Shown: positions 16,344-35,800 of the stretch, in pieces
Layout: each line of letters opens with the position of its first letter
How positions within the stretch are numbered: position 1 is the stretch's first letter
Assembly: GCA_007376135.1 (NCBI GenBank)
Contig: VMFR01000004.1
Location: 21,745 to 85,744 of the forward strand
Direction: 5' to 3'
Source: Parcubacteria group bacterium Gr01-1014_31
Lineage (GTDB): Bacteria; Patescibacteriota; Patescibacteriia; Buchananbacterales; GWA2-38-13
Length of the DNA: 64,000 nt
The notes under the pieces: model-generated
Seen by the model: only the letters and a program-made list of their open reading frames with translations
The model's database searches: none
What the model was told of the DNA's origin: nothing
Translations under genes and position numbers: made by a program

Positions 16344-16364
16344 AGAAAAGAGGGAATTAAAAAA

Positions 16365-16774: not shown

Positions 16775-16860
16775 GGAGAGGGTGGGATTCGAACCCACGA
16801 GGGACTTTCATCCCCAACGCCTTAGCACGGCGCCGCTTTCGACCGCTCAGCCACCTCTCC
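16774..16860 (-). tRNA. tRNA-Ser (anticodon GCT)
   Basis: GGAGAGGTGGCTGAGCGGTCGAAAGCGGCGCCGTGCTAAGGCGTTGGGGATGAAAGTCCCTCGTGGGTTCGAATCCCACCCTCTCCG has anticodon loop GTGCTAA, a long variable arm and T-loop TTCGAAT. Confidence 0.8.
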
Positions 16861-20252: not shown

Positions 20253-20335
20253 TGATGTTTGGGGCTAGTACCCGGTGCTCTGTGCCCAGTGCTCCGTGCG
20301 TATCGTCACCGTCGTAACTATACTGAGCACATGCG

Positions 20336-21071: not shown

Positions 21072-21509
21072 TCAGTCCTGGGCCGTTTCGCCCTCGTAAA
21101 CGCCGCCGGTATCCACGATCAGGGATAATTCCACCAGCCGCGAACTACCCACGAGCGGTTTATGACGGGGCGGTACGATCGGCTTGGTCGTTATTTCCTT
21201 CATCGCCAGCTGGAGCTCGGCCAGCGTCAATCGTTTGTCCCAGAGGGTCAGGCGCGGCCGCTTTATGGTTTGGATGAAATTGAGGATAAAATAATGGACC
21301 GGGCGACCGTTGATCTTGATGAACGCGAACACAATGGTAAACACCGCGATTACCAGTAACCAGAGCAGGAACAAAGTGAAATCGGAAACCTTATACGCCA
21401 GGAACACCAGCCCGCCGGACACCAGTAAAATAATGAACTGGCGCACCGTGATGGGACCGATGACCTTGTCCTCCACGTCGAGGAATTGCGGAACCACGAA
21501 CTGCTGCAT
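21072..21509 (-). CDS. PrgI/VirB3-like small membrane protein
   Basis: 145 aa. MQQFVVPQFLDVEDKVIGPITVRQFIILLVSGGLVF followed by two TM helices. It lies immediately upstream of the VirB4 region, as PrgI-family proteins do in Gram-positive-type T4SS. Confidence 0.55.
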   Translation of the reverse strand: MQQFVVPQFLDVEDKVIGPITVRQFIILLVSGGLVFLAYKVSDFTLFLLWLLVIAVFTIVFAFIKINGRPVHYFILNFIQTIKRPRLTLWDKRLTLAELQLAMKEITTKPIVPPRHKPLVGSSRLVELSLIVDTGGVYEGETAQD

Positions 21510-21613: not shown

Positions 21614-22768
21614 CTAAAACCTCAACGTCCGATTAAAATCCGCAACGGCCTCGAACTCGGCAATGCTCAGCACCGGCGTTCCGGGGGTCGCCTGCGCACC
21701 CAGCATCTCGCTGATCGGCCGCTTCTCCGCCATCGCACGACCGGCCGTCGCCGTGTACAGGTTGAATACTTCGCAGGACCGCCAGGCCGCGATTGCTGCC
21801 GCTTTCTGGGCAAAGGACTGCTGCTCAAGCAGAGCGATCTTTTCGCGTAAGTGTTCCGTGGCGCGGCGCGGATCGGCATCCAAGCGGCGGAAGTCCTGCA
21901 GGGTCATCTGACCGATCTCTTCCAGGGGACCGACCAACTGCGGCCGGTACCGCACTTCCGGCACTTGCTCTGCCGCGGGTTCGGCGGCAGGCGCGGGCGG
22001 TTCCGCCAGTCGCGGTAAAGGAGGCAACATTGCCGGCGGCGCGATGGGTAAAACTGCGGGCTCAGGCTGCAGGGACCTCGTCGGCACCAATAACGACGGC
22101 AACTCTGGCGGTAGCGCGGACGGACCCGGCGGAACGGCGACGGACGGACGGCTGATCAACGATGGACGCTTGGGCGGGGGCGGTGGTACCGTCATCCGGG
22201 CGGGAGCGGCGGGCGGGAGCGGCTGCAAGGACATGCGCCGCGGCGGCGCGATCGGCGCGGTTGAGATGGGGATGGAGGGCCCTTGCGGTATGACCCCGCT
22301 GACGTTGGCCTGCAACTGGGCGACGGCCTGGTCCTGCTGCTGACGGCTGCCCTCGCTGAACTGGCGGTAGTATTTTTCAATGACCGCAGAGGCTGTTTCC
22401 GCCTGCTCGGCAGCGAACCCCAACCCGCCGACCTTCACCGGTCGGGCCATCGCTTCGCGAGTTTCAATGGCATCCCGAATGTCTTTGAACCGCGCCAAAA
22501 CCTGGGTGCGCAGCCGTTTCTGCAATATTGGGTCGGGCAATGGCAGCGCCAATTCTTTAATGACCTGGCCAACGAACGATTCCACTGGGGATGGTTGAGG
22601 GGAAAGCGGCACGGGAGGGGATGCGAGAACCGATGGCGCGGCCGTCGGCTGCGCGGCACTGCGCCACGGCTCTACGATGCCGCCGCGCAACACCTTCAGC
22701 TGCCCATCAGCATCCTTGAAGAGTACCTCCTCGCTGCCGGTGAACGGGTTGTATACAGCCTCAGGCAT
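21614..22768 (-). CDS. Proline-rich hypothetical protein
   Basis: Long Pro/Ala low-complexity core flanked by structured N- and C-terminal regions. Start chosen at the ATG at 22768 (ORF-track start 22792 is GTG). Confidence 0.5.
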   Translation of the reverse strand: MPEAVYNPFTGSEEVLFKDADGQLKVLRGGIVEPWRSAAQPTAAPSVLASPPVPLSPQPSPVESFVGQVIKELALPLPDPILQKRLRTQVLARFKDIRDAIETREAMARPVKVGGLGFAAEQAETASAVIEKYYRQFSEGSRQQQDQAVAQLQANVSGVIPQGPSIPISTAPIAPPRRMSLQPLPPAAPARMTVPPPPPKRPSLISRPSVAVPPGPSALPPELPSLLVPTRSLQPEPAVLPIAPPAMLPPLPRLAEPPAPAAEPAAEQVPEVRYRPQLVGPLEEIGQMTLQDFRRLDADPRRATEHLREKIALLEQQSFAQKAAAIAAWRSCEVFNLYTATAGRAMAEKRPISEMLGAQATPGTPVLSIAEFEAVADFNRTLRF

Positions 22769-22779
22769 GAATAGAAGGT

Positions 22780-24072
22780 TTACGGCAACCACTTGAAAGT
22801 CTTTTCCCGCACATCAAAGTACGCCAACTTTTCATACTGATGCCGCCCGCGCTGCTTGAAGATGTTGGACAGCTGCGCTCCGACACGAGCGGCGTCATGC
22901 TCGGGCACATCCAAACGCTCCTGTAGAACGTATTGTATAAACAACTGCACCGACTGTCTACTTAACGGCTGCTGCGCAAGGGTATCCGCCGCCGCCTGGC
23001 CGTACAACGATGGCCACACGGACAGCAAATGCTGCCGCAAAGCCTGATCCTCGGCCAGCATTCGCTCCAACTGGTCGGCCTGCGCCAATAAACGCAGCGC
23101 CGCCACCGCGCGAGGCACATTCCGCGACTGTACCGCCGCGAAGAATTCGGCGGCCAATTTTTTTGGGTCATCACCGACCTTGGCCCGGATACCGGACGCC
23201 GCTTCGGTGACTGCCCGCTGGTCGGCGTCGCCGCCGCGGTAGGCGGCCACGATATGTCCCAAAGCGGGGGCCGTCACCGTTGCAGCGGCAGGCTCCGTTA
23301 TCGCTCTGCCGCCGACGCGCTCCACTACTGGCTCCAGTGCGGCGCGCTCTTCCACGATAGGCGCCTTATGCGGAAAGCGCAGCAGATCGTAGGTCTCCAA
23401 AAGCTTCGTCAAGATCTCTCGGTCGGCATTATTCAACCGTTTCACGTTGGCATCGCGCTGCAAAAAATGGGCTCGCTCCACCGGTCCGCGTTCCTGGTTC
23501 AACGGGAACGAACCGTTGTAGACCCGCAGCCAGTTCTGTACCGTCGGGTCTATGCGTTCCGGACTCTCCGGCACGGTCAGGGGCGTTTCACCGATCGTTT
23601 CCGCATTCAATCCGATCACCCGGAGAATGATATTGCTCACGTTCACCGCCAGGTCGGGCTCGCCATAGCTGATGAGCGCCGCCTGCATCCCTGAGGCCAG
23701 GTCCAACCCTGCCCGCAACGCCATCACGGTGCTGGACTGGAATACCTCCTCGACGTCGCGAACCCGCAGTACGGCGACACCGGCCACCTTCAGGAGCGCG
23801 ATGATCTGCTGCAGGCGCTCTTCATCGGTTACATCCAGGAGCGTCCGGTCCGAGGACGGGGAAAGCAGACCCTGCAACCGATGCGCCAACTGTAACGCCA
23901 ACCCCCATTCATGTGCTGCGTCCAGGTAAAGTAGGGTGGCATACAGGCGGTCGAAGGCCTTGGGCTGTTTCACCCAGCGCACGTCGACAAATCCGAACTC
24001 TTCCTCGGTCAAACCCTGATCGAGGTCCGGCTTCCGGTTCGCCAAAAAATGGTAACTCAATCGCTCGGCCAT
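22780..24072 (-). CDS. Hypothetical protein (T4SS-like block)
   Basis: ~430 aa with no recognisable motifs. Start chosen at the ATG at 24072 (MAERLSYHF), just after the upstream stop. The ORF-track ATG at 24165 would overlap the giant gene. Confidence 0.5.
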   Translation of the reverse strand: MAERLSYHFLANRKPDLDQGLTEEEFGFVDVRWVKQPKAFDRLYATLLYLDAAHEWGLALQLAHRLQGLLSPSSDRTLLDVTDEERLQQIIALLKVAGVAVLRVRDVEEVFQSSTVMALRAGLDLASGMQAALISYGEPDLAVNVSNIILRVIGLNAETIGETPLTVPESPERIDPTVQNWLRVYNGSFPLNQERGPVERAHFLQRDANVKRLNNADREILTKLLETYDLLRFPHKAPIVEERAALEPVVERVGGRAITEPAAATVTAPALGHIVAAYRGGDADQRAVTEAASGIRAKVGDDPKKLAAEFFAAVQSRNVPRAVAALRLLAQADQLERMLAEDQALRQHLLSVWPSLYGQAAADTLAQQPLSRQSVQLFIQYVLQERLDVPEHDAARVGAQLSNIFKQRGRHQYEKLAYFDVREKTFKWLP

Positions 24073-24076
24073 AAAA

Positions 24077-27000
24077 TTAAATGGTGGGCCGGCTTTTCGG
24101 CGGTTCACCGGGTAATGATTCCGGCGGGATCGAAGGGATCTCCGAGGCGCCAGCCGACCCTTCATTACGCTGTGCCATCTCCTGCAGAGACCTATTGATC
24201 TGGAAGAGAATATCTGCGAGTTCGTCGGCTTGTTCCTGGGTCACCCCCGTCCCCATTGCCGCCGCTGACTCGAAATCTTGGACGCGACCCATCCCTTCCC
24301 GCAGATTCTTGCTCAGGGTATCGAACTTCTTCGCCGCATCTTTTTCGTCCTTACCGGCGCTCTCGCTGGCCCCCTCCTGCACCGCCTGCAGCGATTGGAT
24401 CCCATTGGCGACCTCCTGTAAACCGGTAGCCATCGACTTCAGCGTCGTCTCCAACGATTTAACATCAACTGACGGTAACTGCTTTGCCGCCCGCGTCTGG
24501 GTATCGACTTCCTCCACCACCGCCTGCACCGCAGCGGTACGCTGCCCGGTCGGCGAACCTGCGGGTGCCGCCGATCGCGTTTCTCCCGCTGCCGCGAAAC
24601 CGGCCGACGACTCGCGGGATGTAGGCGAAGGGGCTGCCGCAGCGGATGGCGCAGGTTTGGCTTTCGGCGGCGGAACGGCCCGCACCGACGGCGGCGCAAT
24701 GCCCTCGGCCGCAGCCTCGGCTGCGCGGCCGACATTTTCTTCTGCCGCGGTGGCGATATTCTCGGCCTGCTCAACCAGATCCATAAGACCCGCAGAGAAA
24801 CCCTGGATCTCTCCCATGCGCTGTTCGATCTGCTCCATCTCTCCGCTCTGTTCGGCGATCGCTTGCTGCGCCTTACGCAGTGCGGCGACATTACCCGTTG
24901 ACTGGGCCCGCTGCGCCGCAGCACTCTGCTGCTGCAAGGCAGCCCCTACCGCGAGACGGCGCTTGTCCAGATGCTCATACTCCTTGCTCATGGCCGGGAG
25001 CTCCTGCTCCCCCATCGTCTTTGCTTCCCCGAGCCGCCGCCGAGCGATCGCCAACTCCTCCTGTGCGAGAACAAGATCACTTACGTCAGCAGCGTTCTTT
25101 AATACCAAATCATCCCATTCGCCGATCTCTTTATCGACGCCTTTGATCTGACTGCCCACCGCGTTGAAACGGTCTTGTGCGGTTTTCACGGCGTCATTGG
25201 CGCGCTTGCGTTCCGCACCCGGCGCGGCCTTGGCCTGGCGCGCTTGCTGCTTTTGCAGGTCTTTCTCTGCGGCTTGATGCTGTTGGACCAATCCCGACCG
25301 TTTCTCAGTGAGCTCACGATAGTTGAAATCGCGCTTTGTTTTTGCGGTCGAGAGTTCCTGACCCGCTTCTTTCAGGCCGCTGCCCCTTGCCTTGGGAGCG
25401 AGGCCCAAACGGCGGCGCTTCACGGTGTAATCAAGCTGGTCCCGAATGATCTGTGCTCGCTGGGCGCGGTCGTGGGCTGCCCGGGCCCCGGCATCATCCC
25501 CCTGGGTTGCCTTTTCCTCCGCTTCCTTATTGTTCGCTTCCAATTCGGATTGGGCATTGCTTAATTGCTGGGCGAGCTCGTCCTTGCTCAAAGTACCCGC
25601 GGCGTCACGGACCGCGGCAGCGAACGTTTCCAGGGATTGCACAGATTCCTCAACCCGGCGCCGGTAATCGGCTTGAACGCCATCAAACGCCTGGGAATCC
25701 TTCGCGACAACGCCTTGTTGTTCGGTAACGGCGTCGGCGGCGGCGACAACCTCCTGCTGCTTGACCCGCGCGAGCGTTTGGGCTTCTTCCTGGGCCTGAT
25801 AATTCCCCTCTTCGGCGGCCTTGCGGGCCTGCGCGTTCAATTCCGCGAGTTCAACCTGCCGTTGGTCGCGCACCTTAACGCGATTCCCCAATTCCAGTTG
25901 GCTGGCCTGTAATGCTTGCTCCTTGGCCCCGATCTCCTGCTTGGCGCCAACCACTTCCTCGCGGTTTCCCTGGCGCGCCGCCAAAAACTTCTCTTCCACG
26001 GCAGTCAGCGCCTGCTGGCCCTTACTGACCGGTACGGGCTTGGGTTGCTGCGCCTGCACCGCGCGCTCCTTGGCCTGCACCTCCTGCTGCTGTTTTGCGA
26101 TGCGCTGTTGTGCGGCACGCAAATCCCGTTCCGCGGCCTGGGCCAGGCGCTCCTGCCTCCCGGCTTCTTCCTGGTTGCCTTGGTCTGCGGCCCGCTTCCT
26201 CAATCGGTGATGCACCTGGGCGCGACGGGCAAGCTCATCGTGATTCTGTTCCAATTCCGCCAATTTGCCGCGGCTTCCCGATAGCTCCTGCTGCGCGCGC
26301 GCCGCTACATTCTCAGGCTTTGCCGCCTCACGACGTTCTTGGGTGTATCGAACGCGCTCCTGCAGCGTCGTCAAGAGTTCAGGGAAAGCCTGGTCGGCCT
26401 GCCGCGCGTTGTCCAGCGCCTCTTCCTTGCCCGCCACGTCGCGACGCTTGGTGCTGATTTGCTGGTCAAGTTGCGCCAGCTGCTGAGCGGACTGGTCGGC
26501 CTGCTGGCGCGCTGCCGCGATCTCCTGGGGCGTCAGACCAATACCTGCCTGCTGCACCGCCGCCTGGTTGATCTGCACCGCCTCGCCCAACGCCTGCTGG
26601 TCAGCACGATGCTGTACGAGCGTACGCCTGGACTCCTGCAGGCGAAGGTACTCGGCGTCGTAGGCCTGACGCTTTACGCCAACGTCCTGGCGCGCCCTTC
26701 CATGATGTTCGACAGCCGCCGCAACGCGCGTTTCCTGTGCGGCCTTGGCGGCGTTCTGCGCGTCGATCTGCTCGTTCAGCTGCGCCAACGGTGCGGCGAT
26801 CTTTTCCTCGGCGGTGGCGGCCAGCGCCTGCTCACGGGTCGCTTCCTCAAGCGCCTGCTGTTCGGCCAAAGCATTACCACTCGCCCTCGCGGCGTTCAAA
26901 CGCTGGCTCGCAGCGTTCTGGTTGGTGAGATGTTGGTCGCGTTCACGAGTCAAGACATCGCGATTTCCCATCAACGTCGTCAACTGGGTTTGTATCGCCT

Positions 27001-30000
27001 GCAAAGCTGATCCCTCTTGTCCCACTGCTGCGGCCGCTGCGGGCAGCTCCACCTTAGCGTTCTGCAGCTCAATGCGGGCATGCTCAACATTTTCCTCCTG
27101 GGTCTGCACCACCTGCTCCTGTTCGTTGACGCGTTGATTGGCCGCGCCCAACTGCCCCGCGCTGCGGTCATAGGCCTCTTGAGCGGCGTTCACATCGCGC
27201 GCCTCCGCATACCGGGCAGCCTGCTGGCGCACGAGCGTCGAGGATTTCAGCTTACTGCGGTCGGCCTCCAGCGCTGCCAGCTCCCCGCGCTCTCCCTCGA
27301 GCGCCGCTTGCGCCCCCTCGGTCGCCGACCCCCACTGCGGACTGACCTCGGCCAAAACTTTTTCAGCGATATCATCCAGCTCCGCATCCGGCAGCTGGTC
27401 GAGCGATTTTTGCAATGCCGCAATGAACGCCTGACTGTTGGGCCCCGCACTCGCGGCTGCCCTCTGGCGCAACGCCTCGGCTTGCCGCAGAGCCTCCTGG
27501 CGCTGGTCCACCACGCCCCGCTGGTCTGCGACCTGTTTGTTGAGGGCGTCCAACTGCGGCTGCACCTTGGCCTGGGAATCGCGCGCCAGATCGCGTTCCT
27601 TGATGGCTTCCCGGTCATTCACGGTAAAACCCAATTGGTCGCCGCGCGCTTTTGCCTGCTCCGCCCGCTGGCGCGCCGCCTGGCCTTTGGCGATATGTGC
27701 ATCCGTTTCCCCAAGCAACTCGCCGCGCTGGCCTTCCAGCTGATCGAGTTTTTGCTGTTCCGCGGTCAGCGCGGTATTTGCCTGCCGCACCTGCGCTTCG
27801 GCCCGGGTGGACTCCTGGGCGCGCGAACCTTGCTGGCCCGCTGCGCCCGTCAAAAGTTTTCCGATCTGTACATCCGGCTTTTGCTGCCGTCGGCGATGAA
27901 TTTCTACGATCTCCTCGTCGGTGATGGCGCGCTCCGACTTCTCCTGCGGCGGCAGCGTTTCATCGGGCTTGAGCGTGCGACCGCGGTAGCGGGCACCCTT
28001 TGCTTTATTGCCGGCCTTATCGGTCACCTCCAGTTCATCCAGGAACTTCCGCGTCTGCTCGGACAACGTGTGGGCGTTATCGTTCACGCCCAACGAGTGC
28101 GCCAGATATTCTTCCGGCGTTTCCTGGTCGAACAGTTGCTGCTGCTCCTCGGACAACGTGCCTCGGAACGCCTGACGCTGCTCGTCGTTCAGCTGATTGG
28201 CAAGAGTATGACCGTACTCGTGGCGACGGGCGGTGAAGCGGCTACCGAACGCGGCGTTGTTATGCAGGGACAGCGTTGAAGCGGTATCCAACCGTTTTTT
28301 GAATTCTGCCTCGCGCTGCTGGGCGCTGACCTCTCCGGCCGCCAGTGAGGAAACGTCCTTATCCTGGGACATCTGCCGCAGCGCCTCACCCTGCTGATTC
28401 TCCGCTATCGCGGCATCCTTGTAGCGATAGCCGGAAACGGCACCCGACGCATCGCGGAGCTCCTCAACGCGGCCAGCGGCATTGCCCTCCTTGAACTCCG
28501 CCGCTGCCCATTGCCCGACCACGCGGTCAGCGTACTGCTTGTCCGCGTCGGCTGGTTTCAATGTTTGATACTTCGCAGCATAGGCATCGTGCAATTCTTC
28601 ATTCGTCACAGCGTGGGGCTGCTTACCCAACCGTTGCGCGGTTTCCTGACGGAAGGCAACCCCTCTGCCAACCAGCTCTTTCCTGTAATCCTCCGCCAAA
28701 TTCTTGGCGACGATATCCTTGTTCAATTTCCGCTCCGCGGTTGACTCATCGTAGTTGACGGCGGTCATCCCCGGAACGACGCCATACCGCTGACCGGCTT
28801 CGGCGGACTCGAAGTTCACGCCGATACCGGCCACCGCCCTGCGTCCATATTCTGCCAATGGGCCTTCGGCGTAGCCCTCGGCTGGCCGCCGCTCGATGGA
28901 GGCAACACCCCGCATCGCATCAAGGCTCTCGCTCCGCTTTTCTTCCACCTGCTCATGGCGGACGATCGCCGACGCCGCATACAGCGTCCCGGCGCGAATC
29001 TCTTCCTGGTGCAGGCGTCCATACGCTTCATTGGCCTCGGGCTCCGACATCCCGGCGGCAATCAGCCGCTGATACGCTTCCTGCGAAGCGGCCTGGACCT
29101 CGGGGCTGTAGGTTTCCATCAACGGCCGTCCACCCTTCGGGGCGTACCCATCATGCAGCCGCCATTCTTCGGGGACCTCCTCATCTTGCAGCGCCGCAGG
29201 TTTTCCGTTGATATCGGTCGCCCCTGGTATACCATGTTGCAAATATTCCAGCCATTTAGCGGCGGTTCGGCTTTTGACGTAGGTTTCCAACTCGGGCGAG
29301 AGCGGCCCCGTACGAGCGGCGGCATAACTTGTAGGTTCGTAGGTCTTTCCTGATTTTGTAAACTGCTCCTCTGTATACTTATCTAATTCAATCCCAGGGG
29401 TGCCATCGTAGTTTTTCACCCCAGCCAAATTCATGATCCTTTCAACCGCTACCGCCTGCTGAGAGGAGATATTCTTCTGCCCAAAAAGGTTGGCTACCCC
29501 ATGGTGGCCCTTCGCCTTCAGCTGGTCGTAGACCGACCTGATATCCAGTGCCATGGAACCGGTTTTTTGGTCAAAACGGAAGCCGGCGAATTCCGCGGCG
29601 CGGGGCTGCAGGCCATGGCCGCGTTGCGCCACCACGCGACCGAAAAAGACGGTATCGAACTTCGCCGACGCGATCTTACCCAAGCGGTCCATCCGGCCCA
29701 TGCGAGAATGGACGACCTTTCCGCCCGACAGCACGTCTTCAAACGGCTGCGCGGTGGGATGGAATTTGAAAAAGGCTTTGCCTTCAGTCTTGGCAACAAA
29801 ATTTTCCATTTTTCCGCGGCCGATGATCGTACCGAACTCTTCGCCGAACTTCTCCTCGAGTTTCCGCAATACATTCGCGCGGATATTCGGGTTGTTATGG
29901 ATGGTCGGAGCCGCTTTGTGCTCCGCCGCCAGCTCTTCCCGGGCGCTGTCTTCAGACACCAGGACGTTTTCCACGTCCCCGGTGGGGCGCCCCTTGCTGT

Positions 30001-31822
30001 CCAGCACGGGGCGCGTGAACCCATAGCCAAACCCGCGCAGAAGCGCGCCCTCTTCCGATTGGTCCTTGAGCAGTACCCCGAGGTCGCCCGCGGACCGCTT
30101 GCCGAATGCCCCGCCGATGCGCTTCATCAAATGTTCACGGAAACTGGTTTGTGAGTGTTCTTTATCTCCGTACTCATCGGGGTACCGCTGCGCCATGTAG
30201 CCCATGTAGTCGTCGGTTTGGTTGGCCTTGTTCAACGCAAGCGCGGCCGCGAACGCGCGTACCTGGTTCTTGTTCTTGATGGCCAGATCGAACTCGCTGG
30301 CCTTTTCCGTTTCCGTCAAGGAATGCAGCTCGGACATTTCCTTATTGACGAGCGAACGGAATGCCTTGTCCCCTTCCTTGGTTTTTTCGCCCTCCAGCCG
30401 AGGAATAGCTCCGACGGTCACCCCCGCGACCTTGAGCCGCTGCCAACGCAAGCGCGGCTTGGTCGTACTGTTGAAAAAGTCGGCCATGTCGCCAACCGAT
30501 TTACCGAACGATTGCTGCTCAGAGAGCTGCCGCGCGCGCGTCCAACCCTGCCGACGAAGGGTGGGGCTCAATATCCCGGCAATCGGCGAATACCACCGTT
30601 TGTCCTGAACGCGCCGACCGAGCCATCGGTCAGTCAGCCGGCCCGCGGCGAAAGTACCCTCGCGCGCCAGCCAGCCGGCGCCGCGCAACGGAGAGGTACC
30701 CGCGCGGATGCCGGCGCGGGCCATGCGCTGGCCGTACGACCGTAGACTTCCCATGACCGAGCCGGCAAACTGCGAACCGGCAACTCCGGCCTTCTGGGCG
30801 GCCACCAGCCCGCCCAGCATCAGGCAGGTCATCACCAAAAACTTCAACACGTTCTCTTTCTCTCCGGCCTTGCCGATGCCCACCCGCAATGACGGTTCCA
30901 GTTGGGCAACACCCCCTTCGCTCAAGGTGGTGGTCGGCGCACGCGTGGTATCCAGCGTTTCCGTGAAGGCCTGTTCCGATGTGGCGATGGCCAACCAGAA
31001 GAAGAACATCAAGATCGGCCCGACGGTTACATATTTGGAGAAAGTCTGCCACCACTCGCGGCTGTAGCGCTCCCCCTGCGGGAACGCCGACAGTACGTAC
31101 GCCAAGGGTGAAAGGATGATGAGGATCCACAACGCGACGATGCGCAGCGCGAACACCACGAGGTACGCCAAGATGACGGAAAACGCGATGATGAGCATGA
31201 TGGTCGCCAGCAGCAGCGACAGGAAGAGATAGAACAGCGCGATATTCTCCTCGCCCGAACCGGGGAGGAACGCATCCTGGCTGATGGCGAACAGCTCTGC
31301 CAGCCCAAACTTGGCGTAGAGGTTGCCGGCCGTCACCTGCACGATGGCGTTGGCGAACGTCAGGGTCACCACCTGGGCGGCATCAATGAGCAGGCCGGAG
31401 ATGACCTTGCTGAAGTTGACGAGGATCGCCATCAACAGCAATTTAGGTAGCAACCGTTTGAGGTTGTACGACTCCAGGCGCAGGATGGTCGCGACCGCAA
31501 TGAGCAGCAGCACGACCACGAAGAACATGTTGCCAATGTCGCGCACCAGCACCCACCCGAGGTTGACCGCTTCAAAATTGATGAAATCGTTGTAGACGAT
31601 GACCGACGTCAGCAGACCCGTGATCATCACGGTCAGCTGCCCGACGAGACCGGCGACCGCCTGCAGCACGTAGCTCAGGATGAGGTAGACGTACCCCGAC
31701 AGGTTGCGGATGAACGTCTGCGCCGACGCGGGCTGCGCGAACAGCAAACCCATGACCAGCAGCGCGGGCCACCAGCGGCGGCTCGTTGCGGTCAGCACTA
31801 TGGTCAATCGGCGTAAGCGCAT
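24077..31822 (-). CDS. Giant (~2,580 aa) protein with an N-terminal VirB6/TrbL-like polytopic membrane domain fused to a long hydrophilic region that includes >1,000 aa of Gln/Ala/Glu/Arg-rich coiled coil
   Basis: Signal-peptide-like N-terminus (MRLRRLTIVL...AQPASAQ), then ~6 TM helices over ~300 aa. Residues ~1,200-2,300 are heptad-like and Q/A/E/R-rich, followed by a Pro/Ala/Ser-rich segment and an acidic C-terminus. Start at the ATG at 31822, with an alternative at 31846. Confidence 0.7.
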   Translation of the reverse strand: MRLRRLTIVLTATSRRWWPALLVMGLLFAQPASAQTFIRNLSGYVYLILSYVLQAVAGLVGQLTVMITGLLTSVIVYNDFINFEAVNLGWVLVRDIGNMFFVVVLLLIAVATILRLESYNLKRLLPKLLLMAILVNFSKVISGLLIDAAQVVTLTFANAIVQVTAGNLYAKFGLAELFAISQDAFLPGSGEENIALFYLFLSLLLATIMLIIAFSVILAYLVVFALRIVALWILIILSPLAYVLSAFPQGERYSREWWQTFSKYVTVGPILMFFFWLAIATSEQAFTETLDTTRAPTTTLSEGGVAQLEPSLRVGIGKAGEKENVLKFLVMTCLMLGGLVAAQKAGVAGSQFAGSVMGSLRSYGQRMARAGIRAGTSPLRGAGWLAREGTFAAGRLTDRWLGRRVQDKRWYSPIAGILSPTLRRQGWTRARQLSEQQSFGKSVGDMADFFNSTTKPRLRWQRLKVAGVTVGAIPRLEGEKTKEGDKAFRSLVNKEMSELHSLTETEKASEFDLAIKNKNQVRAFAAALALNKANQTDDYMGYMAQRYPDEYGDKEHSQTSFREHLMKRIGGAFGKRSAGDLGVLLKDQSEEGALLRGFGYGFTRPVLDSKGRPTGDVENVLVSEDSAREELAAEHKAAPTIHNNPNIRANVLRKLEEKFGEEFGTIIGRGKMENFVAKTEGKAFFKFHPTAQPFEDVLSGGKVVHSRMGRMDRLGKIASAKFDTVFFGRVVAQRGHGLQPRAAEFAGFRFDQKTGSMALDIRSVYDQLKAKGHHGVANLFGQKNISSQQAVAVERIMNLAGVKNYDGTPGIELDKYTEEQFTKSGKTYEPTSYAAARTGPLSPELETYVKSRTAAKWLEYLQHGIPGATDINGKPAALQDEEVPEEWRLHDGYAPKGGRPLMETYSPEVQAASQEAYQRLIAAGMSEPEANEAYGRLHQEEIRAGTLYAASAIVRHEQVEEKRSESLDAMRGVASIERRPAEGYAEGPLAEYGRRAVAGIGVNFESAEAGQRYGVVPGMTAVNYDESTAERKLNKDIVAKNLAEDYRKELVGRGVAFRQETAQRLGKQPHAVTNEELHDAYAAKYQTLKPADADKQYADRVVGQWAAAEFKEGNAAGRVEELRDASGAVSGYRYKDAAIAENQQGEALRQMSQDKDVSSLAAGEVSAQQREAEFKKRLDTASTLSLHNNAAFGSRFTARRHEYGHTLANQLNDEQRQAFRGTLSEEQQQLFDQETPEEYLAHSLGVNDNAHTLSEQTRKFLDELEVTDKAGNKAKGARYRGRTLKPDETLPPQEKSERAITDEEIVEIHRRRQQKPDVQIGKLLTGAAGQQGSRAQESTRAEAQVRQANTALTAEQQKLDQLEGQRGELLGETDAHIAKGQAARQRAEQAKARGDQLGFTVNDREAIKERDLARDSQAKVQPQLDALNKQVADQRGVVDQRQEALRQAEALRQRAAASAGPNSQAFIAALQKSLDQLPDAELDDIAEKVLAEVSPQWGSATEGAQAALEGERGELAALEADRSKLKSSTLVRQQAARYAEARDVNAAQEAYDRSAGQLGAANQRVNEQEQVVQTQEENVEHARIELQNAKVELPAAAAAVGQEGSALQAIQTQLTTLMGNRDVLTRERDQHLTNQNAASQRLNAARASGNALAEQQALEEATREQALAATAEEKIAAPLAQLNEQIDAQNAAKAAQETRVAAAVEHHGRARQDVGVKRQAYDAEYLRLQESRRTLVQHRADQQALGEAVQINQAAVQQAGIGLTPQEIAAARQQADQSAQQLAQLDQQISTKRRDVAGKEEALDNARQADQAFPELLTTLQERVRYTQERREAAKPENVAARAQQELSGSRGKLAELEQNHDELARRAQVHHRLRKRAADQGNQEEAGRQERLAQAAERDLRAAQQRIAKQQQEVQAKERAVQAQQPKPVPVSKGQQALTAVEEKFLAARQGNREEVVGAKQEIGAKEQALQASQLELGNRVKVRDQRQVELAELNAQARKAAEEGNYQAQEEAQTLARVKQQEVVAAADAVTEQQGVVAKDSQAFDGVQADYRRRVEESVQSLETFAAAVRDAAGTLSKDELAQQLSNAQSELEANNKEAEEKATQGDDAGARAAHDRAQRAQIIRDQLDYTVKRRRLGLAPKARGSGLKEAGQELSTAKTKRDFNYRELTEKRSGLVQQHQAAEKDLQKQQARQAKAAPGAERKRANDAVKTAQDRFNAVGSQIKGVDKEIGEWDDLVLKNAADVSDLVLAQEELAIARRRLGEAKTMGEQELPAMSKEYEHLDKRRLAVGAALQQQSAAAQRAQSTGNVAALRKAQQAIAEQSGEMEQIEQRMGEIQGFSAGLMDLVEQAENIATAAEENVGRAAEAAAEGIAPPSVRAVPPPKAKPAPSAAAAPSPTSRESSAGFAAAGETRSAAPAGSPTGQRTAAVQAVVEEVDTQTRAAKQLPSVDVKSLETTLKSMATGLQEVANGIQSLQAVQEGASESAGKDEKDAAKKFDTLSKNLREGMGRVQDFESAAAMGTGVTQEQADELADILFQINRSLQEMAQRNEGSAGASEIPSIPPESLPGEPPKSRPTI

Positions 31823-31835
31823 GGTTGACAGTTCA

Positions 31836-32837
31836 TTATGCGGCAACGCGATACTCCTCCTCCGCTTCTTCCGAGGCCAACTGCTCGTCTTCCATCACCG
31901 TAGTGGCGTATTCGGATTCCAGCATGGCTCCCTGGGATGCGCGTTTTTTTCGCTGGTGCCGGGCATACGACCACACGTACAGGGCCGAAATCGTCCAGGT
32001 CGGGATAATGCCAACGATCGGTATCCACTCCACCAGCATCGTAAAAAGCTTGCTCGCCACCCACGCCATCCAGCCGATCTCATGCTGTTTAATGAAGAGC
32101 CTCGCCCCCAGCATCAGCGCAAGACACGCGAAATCGAACAGCTGGTCAATGCCCAGCCCGATACTGACGTCAAAGATATCCACCAGATCGTTGATGATGG
32201 AAACTGCCAGCACCAGCAGATACGGCCAATCGGAGTTCTGCGCCGCGCCGCTGATGAACCCGGCGACCGAGCGTCCTTGGGCCGCCACTTTTTGCTTATT
32301 ATCTTTCGATAAACGCCCGCCCATACCTCCCATGCGGCGCAACTCCCGCAGGCTCGCAGCTTGCTCACGGCGCAAGGCCACTTCCCGTTCCAGCGCTTGC
32401 TGGAGAGCGTCGCTCTCTTCTGTTGCCTGCGCCTGCTGCTGAGTCTCCACGCCTGCCTCCTTGTTCCCCCGCCGCTGCGCCATCGTGTCGGTGAACTGTT
32501 CCAGCTTCGGCGCCAGGGTCATCTCCCCGGGACGCGACGGCCGTTGGCCTGCATTCCTGAATGTTTCCGCTTCATGTTGCTGCCGGACCGCCACGAATGC
32601 ATCCCGCGCGCTGGCAAACCCATCCGGACCGCCCCGGGACGCCTTTCCGCGGTTTGCCCGCTGCCGGTCGCGCTGGCGCATCGCGGCAAGCTCTTGCGCA
32701 TATCGCTGCTCGGGTACCGCCGTTTCCATCTCCATCACCGGAACGTCCAGCTCCCCTTCGGCCTGGGCGGACGCGCCTTTCCCCGGCCGCGGTGGCGGCG
32801 GTGGTGCTGCGGGTCGGCGTGTCGTAAGGTCTGCCAT
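31836..32837 (-). CDS. Hypothetical membrane protein (C-terminal four-TM bundle, Pro/Ala/Gln-rich N-region)
   Basis: Start chosen at the ATG at 32837 (MADLTTRR), 5 nt after the giant gene's stop. The C-terminal hydrophobic segments begin WPYLLVLAVSIINDLV... Confidence 0.5.
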   Translation of the reverse strand: MADLTTRRPAAPPPPPRPGKGASAQAEGELDVPVMEMETAVPEQRYAQELAAMRQRDRQRANRGKASRGGPDGFASARDAFVAVRQQHEAETFRNAGQRPSRPGEMTLAPKLEQFTDTMAQRRGNKEAGVETQQQAQATEESDALQQALEREVALRREQAASLRELRRMGGMGGRLSKDNKQKVAAQGRSVAGFISGAAQNSDWPYLLVLAVSIINDLVDIFDVSIGLGIDQLFDFACLALMLGARLFIKQHEIGWMAWVASKLFTMLVEWIPIVGIIPTWTISALYVWSYARHQRKKRASQGAMLESEYATTVMEDEQLASEEAEEEYRVAA

Positions 32838-32842
32838 ATGCT

Positions 32843-35800
32843 CTACCGTCCGCACAATTCCGGCCGAGCCGAGTCGCAGACACGCACCAGAGCCGACCGG
32901 GCCTCCACCCACGCGCCGTTATTATCATCGGCGATCGCCGGTGTCCCATCATCGGGGCAAGTATTACAGGCGAGGTTGGTCGTATTCACGTCCGCAAAAA
33001 TGGCGTTGGAACACCAGCACCAGTTGTCGCGCACCAACACGCCGACCTGGAAATCGCAGTAGCCGTCCGGAGTACCACTCCCGCCAGGAAGCACCCCCTT
33101 GTCACAGGTGGTCTGCACGTACTTATAGGTATGGGTGAACTGGAACGGGTCGGCCGGGTCGGACTTATCGCGCAACCCCGAACGCCAGTCGTTGTCGGTT
33201 ACCATCGTATCGCGGTTCTCCATATCCCAGCGCACGCGCAGCAACCGCAGCGGAAGCTGGTCGTTGTCCACCTTGACGTTGAAACTCAAGGTCACGTTCC
33301 CTTGGCCGACGATGTAGAAGATCGGGGCTTCGGCGTTCTCGATCTTGACGTTGAATACTTCGGGCGACACGCCGCACCAGTCCCCGCTGCCGTCCGGGTC
33401 GGTGAGCGGCGTTTCCGTGAACCGCGAGGGGCGGATATTGTCACGGCAACGGTCAGCCGGCGGCCGCCAGGCGGTCGTTTCCTGGCAGCTGCCCGATACC
33501 TGGCATTCGACGTCGGTGATGCAGGTGCCCGGGTTTTTAGCCGACCCCGCGGAACACTGCCCGACGCAGCTGGCCTGGTGGGCGGCCGGGTTCCAACAGT
33601 CACCAATATTCTGGCAGGCTCCCAGCACATTCACGCCGGCTGAACAGTAGCCATAGGTGCCATTGGCCGGTGCCTGGCCATCCGGGTCCTCGCCGACGCA
33701 GGTGCCAACGCCGCTGCCGTCGGACTTGGTATTGCACATTTCATCATTGAAGCAAGCCACGCCGCGCAAGGGGTAGGTGGGGCTGGCGTCATCGCACCGT
33801 CCGTAGATGAAGCCGGTGATATCGCACGTTTCGCTTCCGCCACCCGGGCAGTCGGCGGTGGTGCGGCACGGCACTTCCGAATCGTTCAGGTCATTGCCGT
33901 CGCCAAATGACCCGCAGCGGCCGGTCGCACAGAAGATCTTGGGATTCCCGGCGCACGCGGTATCCGAGGTGCAGGTGATGTTGAGCGCCGTTTCCGCGTT
34001 CTCGGGCTCGCCGGTCGGGTAGTAGGCGCAGTACCCGCCGCTCTTCACGCACACCGACGTAGAATCCACACAATCGTTGGACCCCGGGGCGCAACTGTCG
34101 CCCGACCTCGGGCCGCCCGCGCAGTAGTTGGTCGGCACGGTGTAGGTCTCATAGGCACTGCCGTTCCAGCGCCAGTCGCCGTAGCTGGTCGCAAACAGGC
34201 GCTTGAGGCGTTCGCGCGCGGTATGGAACGACGCCACCTCCACCGAGTCGTTCGGCAAACGGCCCGCCGCGGCCGACCACCGATCGTAGAAATGATCAAA
34301 GTAGACTTGCCCCGCCTGGTCGCCCGGGTATTCGTACGGATGGCCGAAATCCGCGGCCTGCACGCGGTCGGAAACCAGCGGCCACTTGGTCGGGTCGCCG
34401 ACGAAATTGCGTCCGATGACGCCGAACGGCGCAGCCAGGTCGGAAACCTTGTAGTTGAGGGTAGGCACCTGGTAATCGGCGGACAAAAAGTCCTGCACGG
34501 TTTCCAGGCGCTCCTGCCAGCCGCGCTGCGCGCCGTCTTCATCCACCACCTGCACCACCTCGTGGCAGGCACGCTGCCAGTAGGTGGGCACCCGCCGCTG
34601 TTCTTCACTGTTGAAGCCGAAAATGGTCGTCGGGTCTTCGGGGTCCCACAACACCAGCCCGGTGGCGCCGCATTTCGGGCAGAACATCAGGTGTTTCTTG
34701 GTCGGCCGATCGCTGGCATCCTCGCGCGCCTTGTAGTCGTACCATTGGTTACTCTCGGTATCCGTCAGGTAAAGGTCGGATTGGTCGGGCGTGCAGTACC
34801 AGCGGCAGCGAATACCGGGCTCGAAGAAATTCCCGCATTTTGAACGCCGCTGTTCCGGGAGGTAGCCGGGCGGGCAGGAAACCGTACCGCAGGTCATGGA
34901 ATTACGTTCGGCGTGGTTGGCCGCGGTCTCGGCGATCGCGCCGATCGGATTGAACATCCCCCACCAGCCGAAGTCCGTCTGGTAGCAATGATTTAATTCG
35001 AACCGCCCCGGCCGCCGGGTTTCCAAAATGACCGACTCATTGCACATGAAGGTCGACGCCCGCAAGTTGCCGCGCCAGCCGGTGATGCCGACCCAGCCGC
35101 CGGTCAATTCGTCCACGGGCAGCCAGTTGAGGCACAGGTACGGGCTGCGCGGGTCTTTCTCCACGCAGAACCCGTAGAGGCCGAGGAATTCGCTCCGGCC
35201 CTGCACGTAGTGGCATTCGCTCGCCTCCGCCAGCGACGTTTGCGACAGCAAACTGCCCGTCAACGGGTCGGTCAGCGGGTCATTGATATCGACGATCTGG
35301 GATTTGGCGGGCTCGTCGCCGGTATCCACCGGAGCCTGCGCGGTCCAGCGCGGAGCGCTGCCCGACGGATAGACGCGGCAGGATTCAAAGATAAGGTCCT
35401 CGGTAGGGTTGGTGCCGACCTGCAGCACCGGCTGGCAGACGCCGTCACGCTCGTCGCCGGTATGGCAATCCGCGTCCTCCAGGCATGCCGCGCCGCGGTT
35501 GCCGGCCACGCAGACCTTGCGCTGGGTCATCACGCCGTAGGGGAAATACCCGTCCACCTTGGTATCCGCGTCCCACTGGAAACCGACCTTGGCGTAACCG
35601 CTGAAGAATTGGCTCAGTTGCACGCTGCCGGCATCAAAGGTGAGCGCCTGCAATTCCTCGGTCGGGTAGCTGGAACAGCGGCCCGAGATCGAGTCCAAAC
35701 GGTCGCAGGTGGCGATCTGCTGGCAGAACTCCTGGACCTGGCCGGTGCGGAAGCTAACCTGCTTGCGGCTGGAGATACAGTCGAGCCAGCGCGCGCAGGT

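Follow-up and report, generated by a model that had tools for sequence, protein, structure and literature searches.

We analysed a stretch of 64,000 nucleotides (the window) containing a giant VirB6-like gene, the source of which is the ultra-small groundwater bacterium Parcubacteria bacterium Gr01-1014_31. Read from the ATG at 31822, this gene encodes 2,581 amino acids (24077-31822, minus strand, as are all parts of the gene described below; stop codon 24077-24079; open reading frame (ORF) list and translation). It belongs to a single unbroken ORF (24077-31846, minus strand) that has 2,589 codons when counted from a TTG. Because this TTG at 31846 has a Shine–Dalgarno sequence (GGAGGAGG) 9 nt upstream and none was found before the ATG, the true start of the ORF may lie at the TTG, eight codons earlier. 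The identical public protein (TSC76133.1, listed as a hypothetical protein from this same bacterium) is annotated by NCBI in the 2,589-aa form. The sequence derives from a metagenome assembly and part of the protein, a helical rod, is low in amino-acid complexity, so the giant ORF could be an artefact, produced either by mis-assembly of repetitive DNA, as the original prediction had allowed, or by fusion of two genes through a sequencing error. We regard this as extremely improbable. Tandem Repeats Finder detected no repeats in the gene, direct repeats were short and at chance level, and the one internal duplication, which lies in the rod (aa 1336-1435 and aa 1591-1690), has diverged to 37% amino-acid identity. 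Moreover, a second, independent metagenome-assembled genome (locus L004) encodes an orthologue of 2,825 aa with 87% identity. This orthologue is colinear with the window protein, with the frame undisturbed and no indel of at least 3 aa up to aa 2387, and dN/dS between the two was 0.14 overall and 0.05-0.21 across all segments. The giant ORF is a real gene.

The gene sits in a conserved cluster, the members of which are all on the minus strand. Upstream, a small membrane protein whose translation shows three hydrophobic helices towards the C terminus (31836-32837; 69% identity to its L004 counterpart, E 3e-102) separates it from a second giant gene, which encodes a 3,248-aa Cys-rich, presumably secreted protein (32843-42589) with a weak CBM_4_9 match. 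This neighbour is a conserved synteny partner, with a homologous C terminus in L001 (E 4e-13) and a counterpart of 3,426 aa in L003. Directly downstream lies a conserved protein of ~430 aa (22780-24072, probable ATG at 24072), which is homologous to the product of the gene after the L001 VirB6-like gene (E 1e-45) and holds the equal position in L002, L003 and L004. It is followed by a 392-aa Pro-rich protein (21614-22792; ORF list and translation) that had no match in Pfam or NCBIfam; ORFs of similar size in L003 (437 aa) and L004 (394 aa) correspond to it by position only. Three genes of a type IV secretion system (T4SS) come next, 2.6-6 kb downstream of the VirB6-like gene: PrgI (VirB3-like; 21072-21509; PF12666, E 1.4e-8, above the curated cut-off), a TrsD/TraC-like protein that represents the N-terminal part of VirB4 as a separate gene (20336-21058; NCBIfam VirB4_plasma 8e-12, TrsD 1.2e-8) and is arranged alike in L003, and a VirB4-like ATPase of the monoderm CD1110 family (18285-20252; NF045971, E 1e-100, with 338 bits exceeding the cut-off of 325; PF19044, E 8e-30). 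A protein of 190 aa that carries a hydrophobic anchor at its N terminus (17716-18288; ORF list and translation) had no match in Pfam or NCBIfam and shares only its position with a 197-aa ORF in L003. The cluster ends with a ComF/GntX-like protein (16952-17665; Pfam Pribosyltran and DZR_2; NCBIfam GntX 8e-30, ComF 6e-22), which is syntenic in L003. The whole gene order is repeated in L003, and portions of it in L001, L002 and L004. With a monoderm VirB4, a separate TrsD-like protein and PrgI/VirB3, the cluster has the composition of a monoderm-type (MPF-FATA-like) T4SS locus. Pfam and NCBIfam profile searches of the window found no coupling protein, and the sole candidate for a VirB2-like pilin, a T4SS_pilin match 24 kb away (56056-57075), was sub-threshold (E 7e-5, with 23 bits where the cut-off is 26.6).

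The giant protein begins with a putative Sec-type signal peptide (aa 1-34, 31721-31822), recognized from hydropathy and from a basic n-region (RLRR…SRR), a hydrophobic core and an ASA/QT junction in the translation. A polytopic membrane domain follows (aa 36-345, 30788-31717; dN/dS 0.05). The signal-like start was anticipated correctly, but the roughly six transmembrane helices expected after it became a range of six to nine hydrophobic stretches across aa 43-345 in single-sequence and family-averaged hydropathy profiles. Searches with the full 1,250-aa query recovered 119 homologues of aa ~40-400 from the CPR (Patescibacteria), with E values down to 4e-97, and the membrane domain alone matched relatives at E ~1e-50 to 1e-85. 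In the family alignment (A1), W90, R94, N98, N136, F137, R227, S238, P239 and F273 are invariant. An AF2 model of the domain consists of long helices (pLDDT 78.6, core >90).

Assignment of this domain to VirB6 comes through its relatives, its fold and its neighbours. The window protein itself matched no TrbL/VirB6 profile in Pfam or NCBIfam, even when the isolated domain was searched at E up to 10, whereas 13 of the 30 family members tested matched Pfam TrbL (PF04610; best E 1.7e-7), so the proposed TrbL check succeeded for close relatives only. Precomputed PF04610 or PF19590 matches exist for ~20 of the 119 homologues, and one relative (P0124) has weak matches to both TrbL and TrbL_3. A search of PDB sequences with the family profile found no solved VirB6. 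When the AF2 model was compared with the PDB by Foldseek, ranks 1-5 were all TrwI/VirB6 of R388, solved within the T4SS stalk (PDB 7o3v, 8rt9, 8rtd; probability 0.89-0.99), although these matches were weak (E 0.01-0.08, TM-score 0.20-0.36, 14-17% identity). The absence of a direct Pfam, NCBIfam or PDB profile match and the low TM-scores would also suit an unrelated polytopic membrane protein that lies beside T4SS genes by chance. We consider this very unlikely, given the TrbL matches among close family members, the ranking of VirB6 ahead of every other membrane protein in the five best fold matches, the retention of the PrgI, TrsD and VirB4 gene order in distant genomes, and an independent survey that calls such genes VirB6 homologues (PMC12102498). 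Relatives match TrbL, the best fold matches are TrwI/VirB6 and the gene keeps its place in a cluster with PrgI, TrsD and VirB4 in other genomes; on this indirect evidence we conclude that its product is probably the polytopic, VirB6-like membrane subunit of a monoderm-type T4SS, in an 'extended VirB6' form. The membrane domain, with PrgI and VirB4 as partners, would contribute to the translocon.

Extended VirB6 proteins are a known class, defined by Alvarez-Martinez and Christie, in the part of PMC12857230 that relays it, by at least five hydrophobic helices and at least one large central or C-proximal hydrophilic domain. The window protein has at least five such helices and a hydrophilic C-terminal extension of 2,236 aa; it is an uncommon variant of this class and not a new kind of system. 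The part conserved across the family is the signal peptide and membrane domain (aa 1-345). The remaining 2,236 residues are modular and comprise a basic segment, two regions that we call M1 and M2, the rod, a Pro/Ala/Ser linker and a C-terminal domain (CTD). The central claim of the original prediction, a VirB6/TrbL-like N-terminal domain joined to a helical extension of great length and heptad periodicity, is upheld, its VirB6 part by the relatives, fold ranking and synteny.

M1 and M2 are lineage-restricted globular regions. The expected mixed alpha/beta region of ~900 aa was recovered as a hydrophilic stretch at aa ~400-1250, the modelled portion of which (aa 881-1300) is mixed alpha/beta (AF2, pLDDT 71.5). 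M1 (aa 481-890, 29153-30382; dN/dS 0.12) is hydrophilic and contains no known domain, with no match in Pfam or the PDB. It is common to a few relatives (P0001, P0008, P0121, P0124 and P0125), and an exhaustive phmmer search returned 8 matches among 1.84 billion representatives. M2 (aa 891-1260, 28043-29152; dN/dS 0.10; alignment A2) is an alpha/beta domain, the AF2 model of which gave no significant match in a fold search. It ends in a putative metal-binding, gluzincin-like module (core aa 1183-1245, 28088-28276), found with a module HMM in nine family members. In the AF2 model, a strand (TLSLHN) is followed by a helix bearing H1201-E-Y-G-H1205 and by another helix bearing E1238 (EEYLAH). Alignment A4 compares eight sequences at 20-33% identity, and no column in it is invariant other than N1188, H1201, E1202, H1205 and E1238. 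Gluzincin-type metallopeptidases (M48/HtpX-like, minigluzincins and M78 ImmA/IrrE) combine HExxH with a downstream Glu in an ExxA motif. The module resembles them in its invariant HExxH on a helix with a beta-strand before it, and in its invariant Glu 33 residues downstream, within an EE[YF][LM]A motif on another helix. It therefore has the zincin hallmark of a helical HExxH and a conserved downstream Glu, but not zincin-like fold or profile similarity, as fold and profile searches against known peptidase families found no match. This orphan N…HExxH…E module, newly delineated here as a sequence pattern, would bind metal and may process its own protein or a partner.

The rod (aa 1300-2330, 24833-27925) accounts for much of the length of the protein and would measure ~153 nm as a single continuous helix. 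A, Q, E and R make up 52% of its 1,031 residues, which include 16 Pro and 2 Trp; Cys is absent. Large hydrophobic residues were spaced periodically, at lag 7 (z = +8.6), lag 14 (z = +3.6) and lag 21 (z = +1.9), and each quarter of the rod gave a lag-7 z of 3.2-5.6; tropomyosin, analysed as a control, gave z values of 4.6, 3.5 and 3.5 at the same lags. The same autocorrelation found no 7-residue periodicity in aa 401-1250. There was also no i+3/i+4 enrichment in the rod (lag 3, z -0.9; lag 4, z -0.1), which indicates that each heptad has only one core position that can be relied on to be hydrophobic, and the heptad profile showed a mix of A, Q and L at the +3/+4 positions, unlike tropomyosin. 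The Gln/Ala/Glu/Arg-rich coiled coil originally proposed therefore stands in composition and 7-residue periodicity but lacks the second (a/d) hydrophobic core position: the rod appears to have heptad character without being a canonical a/d coiled coil. It is under purifying selection (dN/dS 0.135), and its length is exactly equal in the L004 orthologue (87% identity), with no indel of at least 3 aa. The homologue search that had been proposed found no comparable stretch in the other 123 of the 124 family members, which makes the ~1,030-aa rod lineage-specific.

Beyond the rod, length is no longer fixed. The end of the rod and the Pro/Ala/Ser linker (aa 2331-2440, 24503-24832; the linker proper at aa ~2375-2440) are hypervariable in length, and all 246 additional residues of the L004 orthologue sit at aa 2388-2420. 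Exact conservation of the rod while the adjoining linker differs by 246 aa lends some support to the idea of a molecular ruler. The predicted Pro/Ala/Ser linker and acidic tail are both present, although the tail is only mildly acidic (net -6). At the end of the protein lies a conserved helical CTD (aa 2441-2581, 24080-24502; motif …ADILFQINRSLQEM…), which has amphipathic helices (periodicity z = 6.2) and a charged, unstructured extreme C terminus. A profile built from the tails of six relatives, with the window protein left out, matched it at E = 2e-6. This domain of ~140 aa, also newly delineated here by sequence comparison, is common to 12 family members that are 961-2,581 aa long. It is separated from the channel domain by ~1,970 residues in the window protein, compared with 350-535 where the relative is ~1,000 aa long and 857-1,233 where it bears the HExxH module. 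Since relatives of only ~1,000 aa also have the CTD, the rod is a lineage-specific spacer between the channel domain and the conserved end domain. It would serve as a semi-rigid spacer whose length is fixed and reaches at most ~150 nm at full extension, and would determine how far away the C-terminal binding domain sits or can reach.

In this Patescibacteria family, large C-terminal extensions are the rule, with a median of 517 aa and 9 of 124 members above 1,000 aa, the window protein being the longest of the 124, contrary to the expectation that giant VirB6 proteins are found mainly in Rickettsiales. Size by itself is unexceptional for VirB6 proteins: Anaplasma extended VirB6 proteins reach 4,322 and 9,935 aa (PMC7648143). 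The lineage-specific feature here is the unusually long rod of ~1,030 aa. The window protein shares with the Rickettsiales proteins (A. phagocytophilum VirB6-3 and VirB6-4, Rickettsia RvhB6) a TrbL/VirB6 membrane domain that leads into a huge hydrophilic extension at the C terminus. The Rickettsiales systems, however, are of the diderm MPF-T type and carry several paralogues in tandem, whereas here a single copy belongs to a monoderm-type system. The Rickettsiales extensions (in proteins of 4,322-9,935 aa) consist of tandem repeats at the DNA level and differ in length among strains (PMC7648143), whereas the window protein has no DNA repeats and combines a non-repetitive heptad rod of conserved length with distinct globular modules. 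F-like TraG likewise joins a VirB6-like membrane domain to a large hydrophilic C-terminal domain, TraG*, which has its own function in mating-pair stabilization and entry exclusion (PMC9797247, PMC4027160). TraG is a diderm protein of ~940 aa with a periplasmic C-terminal domain, whereas the window extension may be cytoplasmic, and Pfam profile searches found no sequence similarity between the two. The TrwI chains, with 260-272 residues, lack any extension, unlike the window protein.

The membrane side of the extension was assessed from charge. The juxtamembrane segment that opens it (aa 346-480, 30383-30787) is strongly basic, with 24 K/R against 8 D/E (net +16), and the family mean net charge in the first ~63 aa past the last membrane helix is +7.6. 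By the positive-inside rule, a strongly basic segment after the last helix points to a cytoplasmic start of the extension, a placement that we moderately favour. The count of six to nine membrane helices is ambiguous for topology and weighs against a firm orientation. In addition, the fast-diverging CTD and hypervariable linker resemble an exposed, partner-facing end, which weighs against the cytoplasmic side. If it is cytoplasmic, the extension could stand in for a coupling protein, which the window searches did not find, as an arm that recruits substrates or partners; alternatively, it might later be threaded out through the T4SS.

The original prediction had instead placed a stalk across the envelope towards a host cell. 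The extension would then lie outside the cell, and the rod would form an extracellular stalk of ~150 nm that carries the CTD through the wall to the host as an adhesin or contact sensor. The tested charge bias runs against this proposal, with the helix count ambiguous, and we consider it possible but distinctly less likely than a cytoplasmic start. In its favour, the signal peptide sets the N terminus outside, the C-terminal domains of Anaplasma VirB6-3 and VirB6-4 are trypsin-accessible at the cell surface (PMC7648143), and that of F-like TraG acts from the periplasm in mating-pair stabilization (PMC9797247, PMC4027160). Next to the hypervariable linker, the CTD diverges from its L004 counterpart about five-fold faster (dN 0.36 versus 0.07), with elevated dS. 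Fast divergence is common in exposed, partner-facing protein ends. Neighbouring genes, moreover, encode large Cys-rich proteins and proteins with fn3, TSP3-repeat or MopE-type metal-binding domains, of kinds usual in surface proteins. Against it stand the excess of basic residues in the 135 residues past the last helix and its recurrence across the family, as well as the complete lack of Cys in the 2,236-residue extension, compared with the Cys-rich secreted neighbour. The two hand-enumerated topologies that best fit the loop charges both end inside by our inference, and the C terminus of A. tumefaciens VirB6 is cytoplasmic, according to a passage in PMC7648143.

The charge bias towards the cytoplasmic side would also accommodate a role for the extension as effector-like cargo, made in the cytoplasm, recognized through its CTD and threaded or released through the T4SS, with the HExxH module freeing it from the membrane anchor or trimming it there. 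T4SS signals are usually C-terminal, which is why recognition by the CTD is proposed, and the conserved CTD has a charged, unstructured extreme C terminus. The invariant HExxH…E module is placed between anchor and rod. The C termini of Rickettsiales extended VirB6 proteins have been proposed to be released into target cells (PMC7648143), and the Saccharibacterial system reportedly has no coupling or relaxase proteins (PMC10633639), and the window searches likewise detected no coupling protein. However, this reading is inferred throughout, peptidase fold searches of the module came up empty, and the ~1,000-aa relatives have the CTD without the HExxH module. We therefore regard cargo as improbable. 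Similarly speculative is a composite of these ideas, in which the channel subunit of some Parcubacteria has a fixed tether of ~150 nm, a conserved, fast-evolving tip and a basal, minimal HExxH…E metalloprotease-like module not described before, the arm being made in the cytoplasm and afterwards either threaded out through the T4SS or deployed by it so as to reach or enter the host cell. If it were true, the channel subunit would double as a contact or 'harpoon' element at the episymbiont–host interface, and the HExxH…E module would be the founder of a new peptidase family.

T4SSs have been described in Patescibacteria, VirB6 homologues included (Quiñonero-Coronel et al. 2025, PMC12102498), and a T4SS locus is essential in Ca. 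Southlakia epibionticum, a Saccharibacterium (Wang et al. 2023, PMC10633639). The window cluster is of the same phylum and type as these monoderm systems (VirB4, TrsD, PrgI/VirB3 and a VirB6-like protein), likewise has no coupling protein or relaxase nearby, and encodes a membrane domain homologous to more than 100 CPR proteins. To the described VirB6 proteins it adds the heptad rod of ~1,030 aa, the HExxH…E module and a CTD shared by a subfamily. The domain content of the extensions is not described in PMC12102498 or PMC10633639, and a term search of PMC12102498 found neither 'coiled' nor 'giant'. The Patescibacteria T4SS is the sole T4SS reported to be essential to its carrier, with its cargo and direction not established (PMC10633639, PMC12102498, PMC12857230), and, according to reviews, what the hydrophilic domains of extended VirB6 proteins do is not known. 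The window protein offers a clear modular dissection of one such extension. A single end domain is found at 350, ~900-1,200 and ~2,000 residues from the membrane across relatives. These features open testable predictions about the membrane side of the arm, catalysis by the HExxH module, the binding partner of the end domain, and the relation of rod length to the symbiont–host gap or to cell dimensions in cryo-electron tomography.

The giant gene is a single, uninterrupted open reading frame (ORF) on the minus strand, with its stop at 24077 and its start at either TTG 31846 or ATG 31822; the original prediction, which ran from 24077 to 31822, corresponds to the ATG form of 2,581 amino acids (aa). 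A Shine–Dalgarno sequence, GGAGGAGG, lies 9 nt 5' of the TTG, whereas the ATG lacks one, and the protein may therefore start MPHNELST-MRLRR… (2,589 aa). The upstream TTG is also present in L004, a related locus in another genome. The NCBI record has the 2,589-aa form, and the identical public protein is TSC76133.1, 'hypothetical protein G01um101431_995' of Parcubacteria group bacterium Gr01-1014_31. One alternative is that so long an ORF is artefactual, and mis-assembled repetitive DNA had been raised as a possible source. Tandem Repeats Finder detected no repeats over 24000–42700, and direct repeats in the giant-gene DNA were short, chance matches only. A single-protein search for related loci returned one locus, L004, from the independent metagenome-assembled genome E14_metabat.bin.16. 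Its orthologue is 2,825 aa long and 87% identical, and the alignment over residues 1–2387 contains no indel of 3 aa or more. In this comparison, dN/dS was lowest in the membrane domain (0.05), intermediate in the middle regions (0.10–0.12) and the rod (0.135), and highest in the tail (0.21). We rejected a mis-assembly or repeat artefact because of the lack of DNA repeats, the colinear orthologue and the low dN/dS, and an artefactual giant ORF is unlikely. Together with the identical public protein, these observations indicate that the whole ORF is a coding gene under purifying selection.

The predicted layout of the protein (signal, helices, hydrophilic middle, Ala/Gln/Glu/Arg-rich stretch, linker and tail) proved accurate. 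It begins with a Sec-type signal, made up of a basic n-region, a hydrophobic core and the sequence ASA|Q, followed to aa ~345 by a block of hydrophobic helices. The VirB6/TrbL character proposed for this region is indicated indirectly, by its relatives, a weak fold ranking and its T4SS neighbours, but the protein itself matches no TrbL profile. Scans of the whole protein and three pieces against Pfam and NCBIfam gave no relevant match with E up to 10, the isolated N-terminal domain matched no model in either database even at E up to 10, and a family profile of the domain recovered no solved VirB6 from PDB sequences. Residues ~40–400 are homologous to 119 proteins, the named ones being Patescibacteria proteins, with E values to 4e-97 for the full 1,250-aa query and ~1e-50 to 1e-85 for the domain alone. 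About 20 of the 119 have precomputed TrbL (PF04610) or TrbL_3 (PF19590) matches, and PF04610 was matched by 13 of 30 trimmed family members (best E 1.7e-7). When an AlphaFold2 (AF2) model of aa 1–420 (pLDDT 78.6, core above 90) was compared with the PDB by Foldseek, the best five matches were R388 TrwI/VirB6 chains, all of them weak (probability 0.89–0.99, E 0.01–0.08, TM-score 0.36 or lower). In R388, VirB6 is a pentamer. From transitive homology, fold rank and context, with no direct profile match, we conclude that the N-terminal domain is best read as a divergent VirB6-family member. An unrelated membrane protein would also escape the profiles but would not account for the relatives' TrbL matches, and is unlikely.

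The gene order in the window is the 3,248-aa giant, a small membrane protein, the VirB6-like gene, a ~430-aa protein and a ~400-aa protein, continuing with PrgI, a TrsD-like gene, VirB4, a ~190-aa protein and a ComF-like gene. L003, a distant relative, repeats this order except that the small membrane protein has no called counterpart and metK is inserted; its VirB6-like gene encodes 1,048 aa with weak TrbL matches. Parts of the order also occur in L001, L002 and L004. Downstream of the VirB6-like gene, on the same strand, are PrgI (VirB3-like; PF12666, 1.4e-8) and VirB4, an ATPase belonging to the monoderm CD1110 family (338 bits against an NCBI cut-off of 325). VirB4 is split (18285–21058, minus strand) into genes for a TrsD/TraC-like N-terminal part (240 aa) and the ATPase proper (655 aa), 83 nt apart, and because the split also occurs in L003 it is a genuine arrangement, not a frameshift. 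The Patescibacteria T4SS has been described with VirB4, TrsD, PrgI/VirB3, VirB6 and VirB2-like components (Quiñonero-Coronel et al. 2025; PMC12102498), and the cluster in the window is this system. The giant protein is an extended VirB6-like subunit within it. In Ca. Southlakia epibionticum, the T4SS locus is essential for epibiotic growth (PMC10633639). No coupling protein was found in the 64-kb window. Within 56056–57942 (minus strand), 24 kb from the cluster and adjoining a DsbA-like thioredoxin-fold protein, a 339-aa protein has a sub-threshold T4SS_pilin match (PF18895, E 7e-5) and may be one of the reported VirB2-like pilins of Patescibacteria.

Several adjoining genes are shared with the related loci. 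Directly 5' of the VirB6-like gene, the 3,248-aa Cys-rich giant (32843–42589, minus strand) has weak CBM_4_9 and DUF7107 matches and probably works with the T4SS cluster as a secreted or adhesin-like protein. Its pairing with the VirB6-like gene is kept in L001, where the C termini are homologous (E 4e-13), and in L003, where the counterpart has 3,426 aa; in L004 the ORF in its position runs to the locus edge and is a counterpart by position alone. Between the two giants, the small membrane protein (31836–32837, minus strand; ~333 aa, three C-terminal hydrophobic helices) has its stop 13 nt 5' of the VirB6-like ATG and shares 69% identity with the one in L004 (E 3e-102); neither L001 nor L003 has a called gene in this position. 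On the other side, the ORF of the ~430-aa protein (22780–24165, minus strand) would overlap the 3' end of the VirB6-like gene by 89 nt from its first ATG; ATG 24072 is the likelier start. This protein has no known domain, but in L001 a homologue (E 1e-45) comes next after the VirB6-like gene, and L002, L003 and L004 each have a gene of similar size in that position. We regard it as a candidate functional partner, possibly one that binds the C-terminal domain of the VirB6-like protein. The ComF/GntX-like gene (16952–17665, minus strand; double zinc ribbon plus phosphoribosyltransferase fold, NCBIfam 8e-30) ends the cluster distally both here and in L003 (20774–21424). A competence-type protein near VirB4 fits published speculation that the Patescibacteria T4SS may import DNA.

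Two further features of the window were recorded. Upstream of the giant pair, at 42586–49265 (minus strand), is a run of probable surface-protein genes encoding a bacterial TSP3-repeat protein (42586–43404), an fn3 protein (45617–46447) and a protein with a MopE-like metal-binding motif and fn3 (47538–49265), with a FemAB-family gene (46537–47685) within the run, all on the minus strand. A stretch at 13573–16860 has a GC content of 0.466, against about 0.6 elsewhere, contains a DUF4238 gene (14516–15613) and is bracketed by tRNA-Arg (13573–13648) and two tRNA-Ser genes (15841–15929 and 16774–16860); these features suggest a small island gained by horizontal transfer at a tRNA cluster.

Beyond the membrane domain, aa ~400–1250 are hydrophilic, and the mixed alpha/beta character proposed for ~900 aa was seen in the portion that was modelled, aa 881–1300. 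An exhaustive phmmer search with aa 401–1250 against 1.84 billion representative proteins found eight proteins, so the middle region is lineage-restricted; its first module (aa 481–890) had no matches in the PDB. The end of the second module (aa 891–1260), aa ~1140–1260, recurs in nine members of the family. Eight of them, aligned at 20–33% identity, have just five invariant columns, N1188, H1201, E1202, H1205 and E1238, giving the pattern N…HExxH…E with the last Glu in an EE[YF][LM]A motif. The AF2 model of aa 881–1300 (pLDDT 71.5) places these residues on a strand (TLSLHN), the next helix and a later helix, an arrangement that we take to be the signature of a gluzincin-type metal site. The module matched no Pfam, PHROG or PDB profile, Foldseek with the modelled region gave E 0.6 or higher and no peptidase fold, and hhalign against the window's own M48 peptidase aligned the Glu motif alone, at 0.6% probability. 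Nothing scored when the alignment profile was searched against a large protein database. Because no peptidase family was reached by profile or fold, we treat the module as an orphan, predicted from conservation and the model to bind metal and putatively proteolytic.

The long Ala/Gln/Glu/Arg-rich segment was confirmed by the composition of aa 1300–2330, 52% of which is A, Q, E or R, with aromatics and Pro nearly absent and Cys absent. Register-scoring and Fourier-power heptad tests on the giant protein gave weak signals (z about 3), and we replaced these crude tests with lag autocorrelation of large hydrophobic residues against shuffles, using tropomyosin as a positive control. At lags 7, 14 and 21, the segment gave z = +8.6, +3.6 and +1.9 (tropomyosin 4.6, 3.5 and 3.5), and the 7-residue periodicity was present in every quarter (z 3.2–5.6); the same test found none in aa 401–1250. 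A 3–4 spacing of hydrophobics was absent: the heptad has one reliably hydrophobic position, and the would-be second core position mixes Ala, Gln and Leu. The >1,000-aa coiled coil originally predicted thus retains its heptad periodicity but lacks the second core position, and 'heptad-periodic helical rod' is justified where 'canonical coiled coil' is not. One diverged protein-level duplication of a ~100-aa unit was found (aa 1336–1435 matches aa 1591–1690, 37% identity), with no further copies by iterated HMM, and a phmmer search of rod plus tail against the PDB matched SSNA1 alone (E 0.0017). Rod length is unchanged relative to the L004 orthologue, whereas that of the adjacent linker is changed. 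From the HExxH module to the C-terminal domain, the helical segment spans 1,142 aa here versus 213–387 aa in relatives, and no long heptad-periodic stretch was found elsewhere among the 124 family members examined. Homologue searches thus indicate that the rod is a lineage-specific part of the extended VirB6-like protein, absent from the other members examined.

The predicted Pro/Ala/Ser linker and acidic tail follow, the tail being mildly acidic. All 246 extra residues of the L004 orthologue fall in the linker, aa 2388–2420. Pairwise phmmer comparison of the tail with relatives was not significant; a profile built from six relatives' tails, with the giant protein left out, matched aa ~2440–2581 (E = 2e-6). 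This ~140-aa helical C-terminal domain is common to 12 family members of 961–2,581 aa, and nothing scored when the profile of its alignment was searched against a large protein database. Its distance from the membrane domain is 350–535 residues in ~1,000-aa members, 857–1,233 in three members with the HExxH module and 1,966 in the giant protein. Divergence from L004 is about five-fold faster in this domain than in the rest, with dS also raised: at the 3' end of the gene (24077–24832, minus strand), dS is 1.7–1.9 versus 0.3–0.9 elsewhere, which suggests a recombining or hypervariable cassette on an otherwise conserved gene. The order of modules is therefore membrane channel domain, basic segment, aa 481–890, aa 891–1260 with HExxH…E, rod, variable linker and C-terminal domain. 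Across the 124 family members, C-terminal extensions have a median length of 517 aa and nine are longer than 1,000 aa, the longest being that of the giant protein (2,149 aa beyond the domain envelope); judged by these sequences, such extensions are the rule in this Patescibacteria family.

The signal peptide puts the N terminus outside, but the count of membrane helices in the hydrophobic block is anywhere from 6 to 9, depending on how the block is divided. We dropped orientation by helix count, since aa 43–77, 122–158 and 195–248 can each be one helix or two, and Pfam scans of other long family members gave TrbL only, with no domains informative on orientation. Family-averaged loop charges after the last helix are strongly basic (K+R 10.1 vs D+E 2.4), and aa 346–480 of the giant protein carry a net charge of +16. 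The two best-fitting topologies, hand-enumerated from loop charges, would both end in the cytoplasm, which agrees with the cytoplasmic C terminus of A. tumefaciens VirB6, as cited in PMC7648143. The extracellular stalk of the original prediction would place the extension on the opposite side, against this family-wide basic bias, these topologies and the A. tumefaciens precedent. It finds parallels in the surface-exposed C termini of Anaplasma extended VirB6-3 and VirB6-4 (PMC7648143) and the periplasmic C-terminal domain of F-like TraG (PMC9797247), and the hypervariable linker and the fast C-terminal domain with raised dS are as expected for an exposed, partner-facing end. Released effector-like cargo is a further alternative. 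We lean, with moderate confidence, towards an extension that starts in the cytoplasm, counting within this a later threading out by the T4SS.

Extended VirB6 proteins are a recognised class with hydrophilic domains without known role (PMC12857230), and a 2025 survey has already reported VirB6 homologues from Patescibacteria T4SS loci (PMC12102498), without using the words 'coiled' or 'giant'. Anaplasma has larger members of the class, which are built from DNA tandem repeats (PMC7648143). Our literature search, which was not exhaustive, found no description of a non-repetitive ~1,030-aa heptad rod of conserved length on a VirB6, of the HExxH…E module or of a shared C-terminal domain with variable spacing. 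We propose that the membrane domain, PrgI and VirB4 would form the translocon and that the rod would be a spacer governing how far the C-terminal domain can extend: up to ~153 nm for a rod formed by a single uninterrupted helix and less for a folded-back one, with a helical hairpin halving the distance. The putative HExxH site would bind metal and may process the giant protein or a partner, and a cytoplasmic arm could recruit a partner or substrate.
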